Origin: a virus
Taxonomy: Duplodnaviria > Caudoviricetes
Virus record (IMG/VR): IMGVR_UViG_3300030372_000592
Coordinates: 1-38,403 of that record
Reading direction: 5' to 3' (one strand)
Length of the DNA stretch: 38,403 bases
Shown: positions 3,707 to 38,403 of the stretch, one piece after another
Layout of the letters: each line of letters begins with the position of its first letter
Numbering within the stretch: position 1 is the first letter of the stretch
Position numbers and translations under genes: made by a program
Notes under the pieces: model-generated
The model's database searches: none
Told to the model about the DNA's origin: nothing
Seen by the model: the letters and a program-made list of their open reading frames with translations, nothing else

Positions 3707-3869
3707 GAATTGTTATTTTTGCTATACAAAGTTAATGAATAATGTCATAGTTATTCACGATATTGATGTTAATCAATACTTTGCTCAATGCTCTCATTGT
3801 ATGACAGTTTATAATCATGATTTTAATATTGAACATCTAGGAGTTCCTAGGCAAATTGGGATATGTTAA
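3696..3869 (+). CDS. Small zinc-finger protein
   Basis: CYFC...CSHC; start uncertain (TTG 3696 or upstream). Confidence 0.55.
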   Translation: MKTKNCYFCYTKLMNNVIVIHDIDVNQYFAQCSHCMTVYNHDFNIEHLGVPRQIGIC

Positions 3870-4228
3870 TGAGTAAAGAAAAAAATAAAATAGCCGTTTA
3901 TGGAACCCTAAGAAGAGGTGAGGGTAATTTAGGTAGAATAGAAAATACATCTTTAGTTTATCCAGGTCATCAAACATTTCCAGCTATAATACAAAACTCA
4001 AAAGGAAAAGGAACTGTGGTTGAGGTAAGAGATGTTACGGAAGAGCAGTTGATGAGATACGATATGTATGAAGGGGTTGCATCTGGACTATATAAAAGAA
4101 TAAAAACCAGTGTTGATATGCAAGACGGAACAAAAGAAGATGCGTGGGTATATGTAGCTGGAGATGAAATGATGCAAAGAAGTACTTCATTTCAAGTAAT
4201 TCAAAGCGGAGATTGGTACGATAGATAG
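3869..4228 (+). CDS. Gamma-glutamylcyclotransferase (AIG2-like/GGCT)
   Basis: AVYGTLRRG N-terminal motif, D.YEG...LY.R, AWVY; TAATG coupling. Confidence 0.9.
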   Translation: MSKEKNKIAVYGTLRRGEGNLGRIENTSLVYPGHQTFPAIIQNSKGKGTVVEVRDVTEEQLMRYDMYEGVASGLYKRIKTSVDMQDGTKEDAWVYVAGDEMMQRSTSFQVIQSGDWYDR

Positions 4229-5801: not shown

Positions 5802-5830
5802 TTGACTTTTTAGGTGTTTTACATTATATT
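5802..5830 (+). promoter_or_regulatory. sigma70-type promoter for the morphogenesis operon
   Basis: TTGACT(5802-5807)-17 nt-TATATT(5825-5830); SD AGGAG at 5851-5855. Confidence 0.8.
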
Positions 5831-29000: not shown

Positions 29001-29567
29001 AGATGGAACTACGATGATAAAGACCCGATACCAAATCAAATAGCTGAAGGTATAGCAACCATAGGAGCATTTGGTATGTTGTCAGATTTTATGGCTGCTG
29101 AAGATAAATTTAATGCTTTATCGTTTGCTGTAAAGCCAGTGCTATATGATGATTTAGTTAGAGCGGTAGGTAGTTTTCAAGAGTTAACTAAAAGTTTTGA
29201 TGAGTTTGGTTACAACTCAATAGCCGTAAGAAGAGCAACTCATAAAGCATCAAGAATATTTGGAAGTAATGCTAGAAGATTATCTGAAAGATTTATTGCA
29301 ACTGAAGCTCAAAAAAGACAGAGAACTCAAGGAGAAAAGCAGAGAGTTGTTGACAAGATGCATAGGTTTATGATGGCTGGTAATCAAAAATTAGTTATTG
29401 AAAATCTTAAAAGATGGAACAATCTAAATCCATCTAATCCAATCAGTATGAACGATGTAAATTACGAGACTATAGCTACAGCAGCGTTAAGAAAAAATAT
29501 GAAAATTAATACTGAAGACTTAACACCTGAAGAGTTAGAGATATACAAAAGAATAATGAGAAGGTAA
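26004..29567 (+). CDS. Large internal virion / DNA ejection protein
   Basis: 1187 aa helical; Gly/Ala-rich segments; last and largest of the size-ordered series, as for T7 gp16. Confidence 0.6.
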   Translation: MNGQNKITLTPEQADRLNQYFINRNDSLNLYGGMPETNIPEEDLSFEESGEKSWLSNKVDEWLPNIVKKAYNESIQGMGKELITGEKRFNLDGYDPGVKGDIGATVLSFFMPVDLLTTVAGGGFGGLAAKAGAKNALGRAVTMGSKKLMQAGIKKETAREVIEAGSKKILDEAGTQAGAAFTYSGLQSALSQKMKDERVDWSEVLTDASRNSLVAGLGGSVLGRAKGRGQGKLAGYTQEAFTIGTLDPVLRGESPTVEGYIQSVGFAMGLTGAANTARSLRKYKDNINKVYLLDEQSKVNPISKLSVEDRAKQAEVAREFTEAKWQSERGAKLWSKKTGSETVRIIKSGEDKKGKFYKVIDNQSQKQKKIYKNTFFRNYQEENLSRIKTQKSIASIAKNLGINPETEAFILLGKATSLLSDRELLNYNQKLFNKYINRDFRREFADYSDSIPQQDLLDSWLGTSIANLIKTAPKTFKDRGSQAIVKTFYQISDNVSLFEAKSRKEVIKLRELLGTNENELRQVFLEATGRKKATKKNAAKLQEIKKIFDDRLEYAKRGNIAAAGKISKFLPQYFRHDIKDLLFDDYIKVEKATALMYKSGELQKFEKDLIQTIVLDKMANNKLSAPFRELMDDIIRQEQQRTGKKMSYAEAYALFREDALPSKVNPHGSIENPRKFEIPTNLLETDPVKLLAIYDSRLGRRVETARVWGNNNQFITKAISNIKSSDEQIRLRGMVDKMTGYSNVEAFQKMNPNLRKFVDNVMAFEAITKISLGDATIKNVGQTLISTMPMLGMMRTGKAFIKITTDKEFRDSLPYVYQDFIREMVGSVGSSGGKFDMLGAAQIASKLGFEQANKFNALLSAATAKLAIDDYIKMYKKNPDGVKGRYAKEKLKSFFSLDVDKIDSLDNNKIQGAISAFSKRSQVQRDFLREQDWLSKPEVRPFVLFKSFGLKQAQLMTESIKEELRLGNPMIVARMAIGGYAGSQLVGAGLDLISRVTSGRWNYDDKDPIPNQIAEGIATIGAFGMLSDFMAAEDKFNALSFAVKPVLYDDLVRAVGSFQELTKSFDEFGYNSIAVRRATHKASRIFGSNARRLSERFIATEAQKRQRTQGEKQRVVDKMHRFMMAGNQKLVIENLKRWNNLNPSNPISMNDVNYETIATAALRKNMKINTEDLTPEELEIYKRIMRR

Positions 29568-29809
29568 TGGCTAGAAAATTTAAACCAGTAAAGAAAACAA
29601 GGAGAGGAACTCCGTTAAAATACGTGAGGGGTTCAAAGAATCCATCAGCTAGAGAGGCTGAAATACGAAGAACAAGAGAGTTATATAGGATGGGAAAGCT
29701 AACACCAGCTATGATGGATAGAATATCAAAACTAAGGAGTGAAAGTGCCACGAAAAAAAGCAAGCCCAAGAAAAAAAGCAAGTCCAAAAAGAAAAACATC
29801 AGGGGGTAA
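29567..29809 (+). CDS. Highly basic small protein
   Basis: Lys/Arg-rich; G.P.KY..G motif; TAATG coupling. Confidence 0.7.
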   Translation: MARKFKPVKKTRRGTPLKYVRGSKNPSAREAEIRRTRELYRMGKLTPAMMDRISKLRSESATKKSKPKKKSKSKKKNIRG

Positions 29810-30053
29810 AGCAGCTGTATTAGCTAAGTACTCTAAGAGCTCTGGTATATCTAAGGGTACGTTATCTAAGGTCTACTCTAGAGGGTTGGGAGCCTACTAT
29901 TCGAGCGGTTCGAGACCTGGAACTAGTGCTCATGCATGGGCAGCTGGTAGAGTAAGAAGTTTTGCAACAGGAAAAGGTGGAGCTAGAAAAGCTGACGCTG
30001 ATTTAATTAGAGGTGGTAAGAAAAGAAAAACCACTAGAAAGAAGAGGAAGTAA
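29739..30053 (+). CDS. Basic protein, DUF5824-like
   Basis: VYSRGLGAY.SSGSRP...AWA..RV.SF motif; start 29739 or 29745. Confidence 0.7.
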   Translation: MKVPRKKASPRKKASPKRKTSGGKAAVLAKYSKSSGISKGTLSKVYSRGLGAYYSSGSRPGTSAHAWAAGRVRSFATGKGGARKADADLIRGGKKRKTTRKKRK

Positions 30054-30054
30054 T

Positions 30055-30174
30055 ATGCCTGGAAGACATAGTAAAAAGAAAAAAGCAAATGGATTAACGG
30101 CTAAGCAGAGAACATTACCTAAGAAATTACAGCAAAAGATTTTAAAATCTAAAGCTAGAAGAAAGAAAAGATAA
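30055..30174 (+). CDS. 39 aa basic peptide (not in ORF track)
   Basis: MPGRHSKKKKANGLTAKQRTLPKKLQQKILKSKARRKKR; TAATG coupling. Confidence 0.7.
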   Translation: MPGRHSKKKKANGLTAKQRTLPKKLQQKILKSKARRKKR

Positions 30175-30470
30175 TGCCTGCTAAGAAGAAGAGAGACTCA
30201 CGACTAGCTAGAGCTGGTGTATCTGGTTTTAATAAGCCAAAGAGAACACCAAGTCATCCTAAGAAGAGCCATATTGTGGTAGCTAAAGTCGGAGATAAAA
30301 TTAAAACTATTAGATTCGGACAGCAAGGAGCGAAGACTGCTGGTAAACCTAAAGCTGGAGAATCTCGTGCAACTAAAATGAAACGCAAGTCGTTTAAAGC
30401 AAGACATAGAAAGAATATTGCTAAAGGAAAAATGAGCGCAGCTTATTGGGCTAATAGGGTCAAGTGGTAG
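30174..30470 (+). CDS. Basic phage protein
   Basis: KTIRFGQQG, RKSFKARH, SAAYWA..W motifs. Confidence 0.8.
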   Translation: MPAKKKRDSRLARAGVSGFNKPKRTPSHPKKSHIVVAKVGDKIKTIRFGQQGAKTAGKPKAGESRATKMKRKSFKARHRKNIAKGKMSAAYWANRVKW

Positions 30471-30599
30471 ATGCCAAATAAAAAAGCCAAAGAAAGAAAG
30501 CGTAGAAAAAGAAAACTTGCGATTGAGAATAAATCTATTAAGAGATTAATAAAAAAGAAAAAGAAAGAACAAAGAGATGAACAACAAATCTATAGATGA
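30471..30599 (+). CDS. 42 aa basic peptide (not in ORF track)
   Basis: MPNKKAKERKRRKRKLAIENKSIKRLIKKKKKEQRDEQQIYR; abuts the previous stop. Confidence 0.65.
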   Translation: MPNKKAKERKRRKRKLAIENKSIKRLIKKKKKEQRDEQQIYR

Positions 30600-30936
30600 T
30601 ATAATGAGAGAGGCTAGCTTAGCTGAATTTATTTCATCTGCAACAGCAGATAATACAAATGTTGATGTTGGTAATCCAACCATAAAGCCATCTAACATAG
30701 GTACGATGGATATAAGCACCTTAATGGAGTTATTAAAAATGGTTGAACCAATGCAACAAAAAGATATGAGTACGTATGGAGGTGGTAGCGTTGGAGTAGT
30801 TGATAGTCCTATGACTATGCAAATGCTAATGAGAACACAAGAGCCAGTACCTCAAGATACTTCTGGAGTAGGTAGAATGGATATAAATACTCTTATGGAA
30901 ATATTAAGAATGCAGGAGCCTGTTGCTCCTAGATAA
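30577..30936 (+). CDS. Met-rich acidic protein with internal repeat
   Basis: GTMDISTLMELLKMVEP / GRMDINTLMEILRMQEP. Confidence 0.7.
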   Translation: MNNKSIDDIMREASLAEFISSATADNTNVDVGNPTIKPSNIGTMDISTLMELLKMVEPMQQKDMSTYGGGSVGVVDSPMTMQMLMRTQEPVPQDTSGVGRMDINTLMEILRMQEPVAPR

Positions 30937-30942
30937 AGTTTA

Positions 30943-30973
30943 GGGGTGCAGCAAGCAGTAAAAACTACACCCC
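30943..30973. terminator. Stem-loop between convergent operons
   Basis: GGGGTGCAG / CTACACCCC, fully paired (one G-U) on the minus strand. Confidence 0.55.
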
Positions 30974-30994
30974 ACTTCACAGCCGAGGATAAAA

Positions 30995-31171
30995 TTATTT
31001 TTTATTTAATCTTTTAATCTTTTTCTCTCTCTCCCTCCTGAGCTGGGAGGGTTTAGTGTAAAAGCGACGCTCTTCCAGCTCTTCTTTAATACCAACTTCT
31101 CTTACCTTCTTTTTGAACTCAGTAATCATTTTCTGAACTGTTTTATTTTTAGTCTTCTTCACTATTACCAT
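30995..31171 (-). CDS. rpsU: Phage-encoded 30S ribosomal protein bS21 (not in ORF track, 58 aa)
   Basis: MVIVKKTKNKTVQKMITEFKKKVREVGIKEELEERRFYTKPSQLRREREKKIKRLNKK matches the bS21 signature FK.K....GI..E...R.FY.KPS..RR. Confidence 0.9.
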   Translation of the reverse strand: MVIVKKTKNKTVQKMITEFKKKVREVGIKEELEERRFYTKPSQLRREREKKIKRLNKK

Positions 31172-31529
31172 TGTATAAATCTTTCCATTTAGTTTTCATT
31201 TCTTGTTCTGCAAATTTCTCTGCTCTCAGCTCCCATTTATTATCTTTGTATGGGTCATCTCCATAGTTAGCGGCAACAGTTCCAGCTTGATTGTACTTCT
31301 TTTGAAACTTAGCTCTTCCGTATTTCATGGCATCCATCACGTGCTTTGCTTCGTGTAGTACAGTTTTAATCAACAGCTCTGGCTTTAATTTTTCGCTAAT
31401 CAGAACCTTGTCTTGGTCTGGTATATACATACCATCACAGTCCATATTTTTTTCTATACTTATTACTGGGTCTAAGTCATACTGATTCATAACCCACTTA
31501 GCCACTACTCTTTTTATATTATTGGGCAT
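31149..31529 (-). CDS. HExxH zinc metallopeptidase-like protein
   Basis: GMY..I.I, TVLHEAKH, N.WE..A third-ligand helix. Confidence 0.75.
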   Translation of the reverse strand: MPNNIKRVVAKWVMNQYDLDPVISIEKNMDCDGMYIPDQDKVLISEKLKPELLIKTVLHEAKHVMDAMKYGRAKFQKKYNQAGTVAANYGDDPYKDNKWELRAEKFAEQEMKTKWKDLYNGNSEED

Positions 31530-32856
31530 CTAACTCTCTTTTCTTTTCTTCATAATCTTTTGCACTTCTTATATCGTCAAACAGTAAACAGCTATCACCA
31601 GAGTATCCCATCTCCACACTACCAGGAGTTCCATATCTATTCTTAGATACGATTAACATCATTTCATTCTTACCCCATACTCGACCATCTGAATCTGCCT
31701 GACCGAATCTAGACACATAAGGATAGTGTGTAAAGACTACCATCTCTGCATCTTGCTCTAAAGAACCAGACTCTGCTAGGTCTGATAACCTAGGTGTAGC
31801 ATCTATCCTATGCTCTATATTTCTATTAAGCTGCGATACTAATATTACGCACATATCATGTGCTTTAGCAAGCCATTTATACTTCATCGTAGTTTCTCTT
31901 ATCTTATGTCTTAAGTCCCTAGTATCCCTAGATGGAAACTCAATAAGTCCTATATGGTCATCAATCACAACATCAGGTTTTATTCTTTTTATTTCTTCAA
32001 ATGTAGATTGCAAATCACTAACAGAATCATACATAAATAATTTATCTTGATAATTTTCTTTGATAAACTGCATAGCAGTATGTACCTCAGTAGGTGATGA
32101 TGTAGCTCCATGTCTTAGGTTCCTATAAGATAGGCTCATAGACTCCATAGCAATAAACTTCTTCATCATCTCTGTGTTAGGCATTTCTCTGTTGAACATC
32201 ATAACTCTTTTACCAGACAATACTAGCTGTCTAGCTATGTTAGCAGCAACAGTTGTCTTACCATTGGCTGGTCTACCAGCTACGATTGTTATCTCTCCCC
32301 TTGTCATTCCATGTATCACAGAATCAAGAGTATTTAAGCCTGTCTTTATAATGCCTTTACTTTTGAATATTGAGTCATCAGTATCATGAAGCAATGTTTC
32401 GAGGTTAAACTCGTTTTTAGACGGCTTGGTGTTGATTATATTAGATGTATCTGTATTTATCTGCTCTATTATATCATCAAAATCTACAGCGTTATCTTTT
32501 GCTTTGCCTATTAGCTTATGACAGTTATTTACTATACTTCTTCTAAGAAAATCCTCATACATATTCTTAGCTAAATACTCTGCATTTGCAGTCGTAGCTC
32601 CACTGGTTGCTATTCTAGTTAGCTCATAAGACGGTAGCTTTCCATCTAATCTGTTCTTTGGTAGAACTCTTGATACCGATAAAGCATCAACTGGCTCATT
32701 GTTATTGTAAAGCTTGTAACATTCTAACCATACCTGTTTATTAAAAGAGTTATAGAATACATCTTCTTCAGGTATCCATCTTCTTATATCTTCTATACAC
32801 TCTGGCTTGTTAAGTATGCAGAACAACAAAGCTTCTTCTGTTTCTAAATTGTACAT
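31519..32856 (-). CDS. dnaB: Replicative DNA helicase (DnaB-like)
   Basis: AGRPANGKT, VVIDDH, SQLNR, PRLSDLAESGSLEQDA, KNRYG; DnaB N-terminal domain. Confidence 0.96.
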   Translation of the reverse strand: MYNLETEEALLFCILNKPECIEDIRRWIPEEDVFYNSFNKQVWLECYKLYNNNEPVDALSVSRVLPKNRLDGKLPSYELTRIATSGATTANAEYLAKNMYEDFLRRSIVNNCHKLIGKAKDNAVDFDDIIEQINTDTSNIINTKPSKNEFNLETLLHDTDDSIFKSKGIIKTGLNTLDSVIHGMTRGEITIVAGRPANGKTTVAANIARQLVLSGKRVMMFNREMPNTEMMKKFIAMESMSLSYRNLRHGATSSPTEVHTAMQFIKENYQDKLFMYDSVSDLQSTFEEIKRIKPDVVIDDHIGLIEFPSRDTRDLRHKIRETTMKYKWLAKAHDMCVILVSQLNRNIEHRIDATPRLSDLAESGSLEQDAEMVVFTHYPYVSRFGQADSDGRVWGKNEMMLIVSKNRYGTPGSVEMGYSGDSCLLFDDIRSAKDYEEKKRELDAQ

Positions 32857-37118: not shown

Positions 37119-37147
37119 AATATACAATTTATAAAATTGTGTGTCAA
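37119..37147 (-). promoter_or_regulatory. sigma70-type promoter for the recombination/replication operon
   Basis: TTGACA(37147-37142)-17 nt-TATATT(37124-37119); SD AAAGGA then ATG 37091. Confidence 0.85.
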
Positions 37148-37333: not shown

Positions 37334-37362
37334 TTGACAATCTACCGATTTTCACTTATATT
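37334..37362 (+). promoter_or_regulatory. sigma70-type promoter, antisense to neighbouring genes
   Basis: TTGACA(37334-37339)-17 nt-TATATT(37357-37362); inverted twin of the 1220-1248 promoter. Confidence 0.75.
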
Positions 37363-37620: not shown

Positions 37621-38403
37621 TTAAATGCTTGTAGTAGTCTCGATATGAGGAGATTCTATCTCAAAAAATCCTATCATATCATAATCCTCTTGGATGGAGG
37701 AATCATAGAATTTTCTAATTCTATTATGTATATATGCTCTCACAAGTATATGTAAATCTAGAATCACTCCCATCTCGTAGATATTGCAGTACCTATCCTT
37801 AGGGTCTCTGTTCATCATAGTTTTCCATATTTTCATAAGCTGCTTAGCTCTAGAGAGAGACATACTCTGTCCTGACACCTGTTTTCTTTCTACTAGATTG
37901 TGTAAATCTAGACCTGCCTTAACAATAGACTGACAAATCTCTATCCAATTTATTATCTTTTCAGGGTTAAGAGTTCCAGAGTGATGCCTAAACTCTATCG
38001 AGCCATGTATTACTCTGGAGTGCATATTGACTCCACAATATCTAGAGTCGTTGTACTTCTCCATACTAGGGCTAGTTCCATGAGAGCGATACCATGCGTC
38101 TATAAAATCTTCTTCGTCGTGTATTCTGAGTATCTTTTCTATGGACATAGGTATACGCTTTGCCCATCTAGTATTACCTCTGGAGGGAGGCATCATCTTG
38201 TAGATAACAGGTTCGCATAGTTTGGCAACTGCTAGTATGTATGCAAGTTGTCTTGCACGTAAGTCTCTGGCATCTATATGAACATGGAGACCACAAGACT
38301 TGTTTACATACCAACCTCGATTTGCAAGTATGCTAGTGATATTATTAATTGATAGATATAATTCATCTCCACTAAGACCACCTCTAGTTACAAACTCTCT
38401 ACC
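37621..38403 (-). CDS. Putative amidoligase (COOH-NH2 ligase), 5'-truncated by the window edge
   Basis: Frame open to 38403: GREFVT, NKSCGLHVHID, RY.GVN, SIEFRHHSGTLN.EKI.NW. Confidence 0.88.
   Translation of the reverse strand, partial: GREFVTRGGLSGDELYLSINNITSILANRGWYVNKSCGLHVHIDARDLRARQLAYILAVAKLCEPVIYKMMPPSRGNTRWAKRIPMSIEKILRIHDEEDFIDAWYRSHGTSPSMEKYNDSRYCGVNMHSRVIHGSIEFRHHSGTLNPEKIINWIEICQSIVKAGLDLHNLVERKQVSGQSMSLSRAKQLMKIWKTMMNRDPKDRYCNIYEMGVILDLHILVRAYIHNRIRKFYDSSIQEDYDMIGFFEIESPHIETTTSI

Follow-up and report, generated by a model that had tools for sequence, protein, structure and literature searches.

Phage-borne copies of ribosomal protein genes raise the question of what they do for the virus, and the locus described here raises a second one: why the codons of such a gene should be conserved beyond the protein that they encode. 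Genes for the ribosomal protein bS21 have been counted in 1,310 viral contigs, with genomes of more than 130 kb as the only cultivated carriers, according to the accessible text of Mizuno et al. 2019 (PMC6375957). The same text reports that E. coli 70S ribosomes take up the bS21 of pelagiphage HTVC008M and are then ~5% active. Since the phage protein left the ribosomes with so little activity, the benefit of phage bS21 is unsettled.

The window, that is, the whole stretch of DNA analysed, is a linear record of 38,403 bases, estimated to be 90% complete and with 35.6% G+C. Its plus arm encodes terminase, portal, capsid, tail spike, endolysin and internal virion protein families, with the TerL, portal and capsid genes located at 4.3–10.3 kb, while the minus arm encodes amidoligase, exonuclease, Sak and DnaB families. 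Among the 63 proteins scanned, no match was found to integrase, sheath, tape measure or primase families, and neither tRNA nor tmRNA genes were found. The portal, internal virion protein and tail spike matches, in the absence of sheath, tape measure and integrase matches, agree with the small podovirus-like genome described in a first-pass annotation of this DNA. The late arm ends in a run of small, very basic, Lys/Arg-rich genes (29567–30599, +), which possibly encode DNA-condensing core proteins; in marine sequencing runs, of both RNA and DNA, numerous contigs match the 98-aa gene among them (PHROG 7595). Genes for a gamma-glutamyl cyclotransferase (3863–4228, +) and an amidoligase (37621–38196, −) lie on opposite arms, a pair often tied to cell-wall modification.

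The minus-strand run of exonuclease, Sak, DnaB and bS21 is headed by a predicted sigma-70-type promoter (37119..37147, −), which matches 11/12 consensus positions. The end of the DnaB-like replicative helicase gene (31519..32856, −; Pfam DnaB_C, E 3.8e-50) is overlapped by a gene for a HExxH metallopeptidase-like protein of 126 aa (31149..31529, −; PHROG 87, E 5.9e-5), the 3′ end of which overlaps the start of the bS21 gene by 23 nt. The bS21 (rpsU) gene (30995..31171, −), with an ATG start and 58 codons for amino acids, faces the last gene of the late arm, a variable, convergent gene of 119 aa without a family match (30577..30936, +). Between the two lies a hairpin (30943..30973, −), found in 36/42 distinct loci and more stable on the bS21 strand in 36/36. 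Because it is always more stable on that strand, this hairpin is the predicted end of the early (DnaB–bS21) transcript, past which a late polymerase would read. The overlapping run of genes followed by such a hairpin bears out the proposal of the first-pass annotation that bS21 terminates the replication operon, although this setting is not unique: in the accessible text of Chen et al. 2022 (PMC9723584), a DNA helicase lies within ten genes of bS21 in 30 of 900 bS21 phages.

Some variation surrounds this arrangement. The intergenic hairpin motif is absent from the remaining 6/42 loci (L002, L003, L045, L048, L063 and L064), and in L002–L004 the convergent stop codons are 3 nt apart, with the in-gene element described below still intact. 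In many loci, the hairpin is preceded on the bS21 strand by a short motif resembling TGTG (30955–30990 of the window), and an additional small hairpin is found near its place in loci that lack bS21. In L100 (L016), a gene of 93 aa is inserted between the HExxH gene and bS21.

The 58-aa ORF is a genuine bS21 gene under purifying selection. A search with Pfam Ribosomal_S21, proposed as a check when the ORF was first read as bS21, gave a significant match (PF01165, 30.9 bits, E 2.2e-7; gathering cut-off 27), and PHROG 21469, "ribosomal protein S21", matches as well (E 1.3e-7). The top matches of a PDB sequence search are bS21 chains (best E 9.8e-5). The TIGR00030 equivalog model stays just below its cut-off of 28.95 (25.5 bits, E 8.6e-6). 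An AlphaFold2 model (mean pLDDT 73) places helices at residues 12–26, 28–38 and 41–57, and Foldseek ranks the bS21 chain 8fmw_U first, at E 0.093, with no match at E 0.001 or better. Across 32 distinct genes, dN/dS is 0.147 in codons 2–29 (dS 1.4) and 0.158 in codons 30–51; the last six codons (52–57) are unconstrained, with a value of 1.4. No conserved overlapping protein or frameshift product was found in the other frames. The identification made from the ORF alone is thus upheld, whereas its description as a hidden gene holds only for the ORF length cut-off then applied, since JGI gene calls already label relatives "ribosomal protein S21". By analogy with HTVC008M, the protein likely exchanges into host 30S subunits. 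The gene's own SD is weak (−3.9 kcal/mol). The clade's bS21 sits on a long branch of the bS21 tree, and the nearest bS21 outside the clade scores 59.8 bits against 114 bits.

Promoters and ribosome-binding sites bear on the host. The exact pattern TTGAC[A/T]-N17-TATATT occurs five times where 0.08 are expected, a pattern chosen after earlier scans, in which loose consensus counts were at chance (33 vs 31.8 and 24 vs 24.3). The copies lie at 1220–1248, 2908–2936, 5802–5830, 37119–37147 and 37334–37362, all with TATATT; the two that head the packaging and capsid genes have TTGACT and the other three TTGACA. SD motifs precede 21/46 genes against a background of 11.5%. In Bacteroidota, promoters are of the TTTG/TANNTTTG type and SD sequences are lacking, as stated in the accessible part of PMC6847099. 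Furthermore, the residue at the position of F. johnsoniae Tyr54, in the register of the KPS motif, is Arg here (Phe or Tyr in 10/33 clade genes), so that the protein lacks the aromatic residue 54 of the Bacteroidota-type, anti-SD-sequestering bS21. Given the sigma-70-type promoters, the SD motifs and this Arg, a Bacteroidota host seems unlikely, in line with the argument from promoters in the first-pass annotation. The bS21 phylogeny that it had suggested as a pointer to the host gave unresolved trees and named none. Relatives derive from Tara and seawater data, the best terminase matches in cultured phages have ~26% identity, and no close terminase relative was found in GTDB genomes. An exact search for a 27-nt piece of the element found no copy in GTDB genomes either; with no cellular copy there and no integrase match among the 63 proteins, an attachment site in host rpsU was rejected.

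The distribution of the gene was followed in viral loci anchored on DnaB. The best 80 of 103 such loci comprise 19 with bS21 and the element, four with the element and no bS21, nine with a distant bS21 and no element, and 48 with neither, five of which have <500 nt downstream. In the DnaB tree, the 19 and the four form one clade and the nine its sister clade, and bS21 occupies the same place in all 19 clade loci that carry it. The lineage consists of ~38-kb marine phages, and bS21, where present, is the last gene of the DnaB operon. The bS21 tree is compatible with one shared acquisition by both subclades (p-AU 0.323) but does not demonstrate it. One 80-kb IMG/VR record (G003; L006, L017, L082 and L090) carries two terminases beside its two bS21 genes, and is for that reason most likely two related genomes joined in assembly.

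Constraint on this gene extends beyond the protein. Of 61 loci examined, 58 have a full bS21 gene, 33 of them distinct. For 36 distinct loci in which the DnaB, HExxH and bS21 genes are all complete, synonymous changes in bS21 were counted along a tree, with codons for these same amino acids in its two neighbours giving the expectation. Codons 30–51 have undergone 16 synonymous changes where 62 are expected, with 0/200,000 resamples as low, and the resulting ratio of 0.26 compares with 0.69 in the lowest of 203 DnaB windows. Within codons 31–50, 12/19 codons show no synonymous change at all. The frozen codons are often rare (CCC 3.8%, TCC 2.0%, CTG 3.9%, AGG 15.8%) and are interleaved with freely varying codons of the loop described below. 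This freezing was not selected by the search, because the locus patterns allowed all synonymous codons. Codons 45–50 are without synonymous change in 33/33 distinct genes; the SD-like purine tract at codons 45–51 of the mRNA is, on the late strand, an invariant pyrimidine tract (31020..31039, +). A second copy of this tract was not found in the genome at up to 3 mismatches, and no Rfam family reached its gathering score, the six matches (best E 0.31) all falling well short of it. Three extra pattern matches (L175, L181 and L183) look like chance and were set aside.

Immediately 3′ of the tract, the RNAalifold consensus of the late-gene (+) strand contains a 13-bp stem (31040–31052 with 31069–31081; 31040..31081 overall) closed by a 16-nt loop and antisense to bS21 codons 31–44. 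In 17 chosen distinct copies, 97.3% of 221 cells are paired on the plus strand versus 81.4% on the mRNA strand, and 0/500 shuffles were as high, in a test whose shuffles ignore relatedness and whose structures were read from the same sequences. Four compensatory pairs have changed on both sides with + strand pairing kept, three of them mainly owing to a single lineage without bS21. G–U pairs fall on the late strand at 7/13 stem positions and the reverse is seen at one terminal position; on the mRNA strand, the long stem has internal A–C mismatches. The length of the loop is constant and part of its sequence is invariant, and the pyrimidine tract is mostly unpaired in the late-strand fold of 13/13 distinct elements. 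The late-strand element folds at −23.9 kcal/mol, a stability reached by 0/5000 recodings under phage codon usage and 6/5000 under uniform usage; the structure of the mRNA strand, too, is rarely matched by recodings (7/5000 as stable). What comparison of the sequences shows is frozen synonymous sites and a pairing biased to the late strand, together with compensatory changes. An H-type pseudoknot or switch through CCCUCC:GGAGGG was tried and rejected, with no compensatory pair on either strand.

The element also exists without the protein. No bS21 was found in L102, L104, L105 and L115, where the element overlaps the HExxH gene at its end or follows it directly. The remnant in these loci reads in frame like bS21 residues 31–49 and contains an internal stop codon, while the pyrimidine tract is retained in all four non-coding copies. 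Two G–U pairs have become Watson–Crick pairs, and new G–U pairs again favour the plus strand. As the stretch of residues 31–49 is the canonical bS21 motif of solved structures, bS21 codons are the most likely source of the element, and the bS21 gene would have been lost later in one lineage. This lineage falls inside the clade in the best DnaB tree (SH-aLRT 88); a sister position is not rejected (p-AU 0.158).

What the element does is a separate matter. The reading we favour, with belief and doubt in about equal measure, is that of an intact, selected bS21 gene whose second half carries a late-strand stem-loop where the convergent late transcript would pause or have its 3′ end. The early operon would be read from the sigma-70-type promoter through DnaB and bS21, and its transcript would end with the intergenic hairpin, a structure that is well folded on the early strand alone. 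The late polymerase would pass this hairpin, enter bS21 antisense for ~100–150 nt, cross the C/U-rich tract and pause at the 13-bp stem, from which it may be released by Rho or by head-on collision. Such a signal would spare the replication genes from antisense RNA; it would have been built out of bS21 codons and then have outlived the protein in one lineage. Late transcription over the element, its termination there and its timing are what we infer from the arrangement of genes and folds. In favour, 15 C and 4 G are counted in the 64 nt before the stem on the late strand. The same 64 nt hold 13 YC dimers; the last late stop codon lies 103 nt away, and a weak hairpin falls within this distance. 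The stem is stable and G+C-rich, as in intrinsic terminators, but a U-rich tail (≥5 U in 8 nt) follows it in only 11/42 loci of the clade, and the loop is long. For these two reasons the element is not a classical intrinsic terminator, and the scarcity of U-rich tails means that release would need Rho or collision. A stem-loop at a convergent gene pair, as found here, is also a feature of collision-driven bidirectional terminators. Contigs of RNA libraries from one study cover the bS21 of relatives, and these contigs carry neither strand nor ends. The termination reading leaves the invariant tract, the length of the loop and part of its sequence unaccounted for.

The sister clade offers a parallel. 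There, the late gene abuts bS21, and a different antisense stem is present in 7/8 distinct bS21 genes; it folds at −16 to −18 kcal/mol, is followed by a U-rich run and shows 5 compensatory pairs, in terminator geometry. An antisense stem reaching −16 kcal/mol was found in 0/33 other phage bS21 genes (54 of 67 loci examined), 30 of which have a same-strand neighbour and two a convergent one. L227, one of these two, an unrelated bS21 gene that abuts its convergent neighbour, has no antisense stem. The window clade and the sister clade amount to two lineages, not to many independent trials. The sister clade also shares an intergenic hairpin of 9–10 bp with a long loop (L114:1680-1743, L107:1672-1737 and L110:1673-1741, +); on the early strand, ~2.3 kb upstream of DnaB, it immediately precedes an SD and a start codon, and it matches the element model weakly (E 0.11–4.1).

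Other readings of the same data have to be weighed. It is doubtful, though not far-fetched, that the late read-through RNA is itself the effector, its stem presenting the anti-SD-like tract to silence bS21 and the early operon in an excludon-like manner, or to pair with SDs in trans. The CCUCCU core of the tract, its unpaired state in the late-strand fold, its invariance even where it has no coding role and the complementarity, by position, of the last 100–150 nt of the predicted late RNA to bS21 mRNA would all fit. However, the element persists where no bS21 mRNA exists to silence, no dedicated promoter was seen adjoining it, and the single occurrence of the tract in the genome and the lack of an Rfam match weigh on the same side. 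Complementarity to E. coli 16S, 23S and 5S rRNA is not above that of shuffles, which also led to the rejection of an rRNA mimic or rRNA antisense. A small stable RNA was rejected as well, as its 5–7% word shares in RNA runs traced to contigs of relatives or to other parts of the window. A signal in single-stranded DNA, where a hairpin on the plus strand would place host primase at the C-T-purine triplet ending the tract, as a priming or origin site, is somewhat improbable. It would explain how a sequence-specific tract outlives its gene; the phage has DnaB and no primase match, and in 17/17 aligned copies the last triplet of the tract, adjoining the stem on its 5′ side, is CTG or CTA. Triplets of the CTG/CTA type are used by bacterial DnaG. 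Against it, the stem folds as DNA at only −5 to −9 kcal/mol compared with −21 to −24 kcal/mol as RNA (9/9 copies folded), no copy occurs in the sister clade or in the 48 more distant loci, and the sister-clade hairpin has the geometry of a terminator.

An element acting on the mRNA is unlikely: there, an internal SD (AGGAGG), an anti-SD hairpin and a GA repeat would cause ribosome pausing or frameshifting and autoregulate bS21, as for Flavobacterium rpsU, where autoregulation through SD pairing is known from the accessible text of PMC9976891. The excess structure of the mRNA strand over recodings speaks for it, as does a 6-bp SD hairpin that is possible in 98% of cells, yet this hairpin has no compensatory pair, mRNA folds vary among copies and the long stem carries its A–C mismatches on this strand. 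Moreover, stronger pairing with the anti-SD is available at no fewer than 15 genomic sites, the other frames yield no conserved product and the element persists in non-coding copies. That the bS21 frame is a mere passenger of the element, or that its low variation reflects a recent functionless recombination sweep, is very improbable. Four close relatives lack bS21, the clade's bS21 has its long branch and its TIGR00030 score below cut-off, and the last six codons are free to vary; nevertheless, the alternation of frozen with freely varying codons, stem changes that preserve pairing and the low dN/dS of codons 2–29 largely refute it. A bolder possibility, of low probability, is a new type of phage RNA signal made from ribosomal-protein codons, in which the late-strand stem, the fixed 16-nt loop and the exposed anti-SD-like tract would be read by a host or phage factor to shut the bS21–replication operon as late transcription arrives; such a signal would be more indispensable than the captured bS21, and antisense stems would have arisen twice in the bS21 genes of this family.

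The gene and its element can be set against known systems. Like the Pelagibacter myovirus HTVC008M and the contigs of Mizuno et al., the present phage is aquatic, carries a bS21 family gene under purifying selection and has no integrase match; unlike HTVC008M, it has a podovirus-like genome of ~38 kb, and the two bS21 proteins share ~42% identity over 43 aa. No in-gene RNA element is described in the accessible text of Mizuno et al. The freshwater jumbo phages of Chen et al. likewise have a clade-wide conserved bS21 position, on the strand opposite to neighbouring structural genes. As described in the accessible part of that study, they are Bacteroidota myoviruses of 293–331 kb, in which bS21 carries an aromatic residue at position 54 and lies among genes for TerL, portal and capsid, whereas here bS21 follows DnaB, promoters are of sigma-70 type and residue 54 is Arg; at 38.4 kb, the record falls outside this ~300-kb type. 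None of six contig prefixes or five sample numbers from relatives occurs in the part of the Chen supplement consulted, whose marine rows use other names, and clade members may be counted in its Table S9, which holds many short marine contigs.

In E. coli, hairpins without an intrinsic-terminator sequence position RNAP collisions at convergent genes, according to the accessible text of Wang, Ju, Liu et al. (10.1101/2022.10.23.513370). The present stem-loop resembles these in sequence type and location, and differs in lying inside a coding sequence, pairing well on just one strand and having a loop of constant length, 16 nt, next to a tract that is invariant; its role in termination is a prediction. 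The Bacteroidota rpsU system of McNutt et al. 2023 (PMC9976891, as far as accessible) also has an SD-like purine tract in the bS21 transcript, but there the extended SD is the ribosome-binding site upstream of the start, not a tract at codons 45–50. A structured-RNA screen of IMG/VR was restricted to intergenic DNA (PMC10690425, accessible part); the pyrimidine tract has no match in the files searched of its supplement, so that the screen could still include the non-coding copies. In the accessible literature on phage bS21, rpsU antisense and phage RNA structure, no description was found of an RNA element that lies within a phage bS21 gene.

Phage bS21 itself is well described, usually for large phages and late expression, and the gene studied here extends this known class to a small genome, at the end of the replication operon of a ~38-kb marine lineage. 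What is new is the antisense element within the gene, kept after gene loss and paralleled in the sister clade, a less ordinary feature that the first-pass annotation had overlooked. Screens limited to intergenic DNA, such as that of PMC10690425 to judge from its accessible part, cannot see the coding copies of such an element. The conserved C-terminal half of a phage bS21 can reflect RNA structure rather than ribosome binding. Finally, the four close relatives without bS21 provide a natural with-and-without comparison, and the locus clearly illustrates how a gene captured from a host can take on a second, non-coding role that outlasts its protein.
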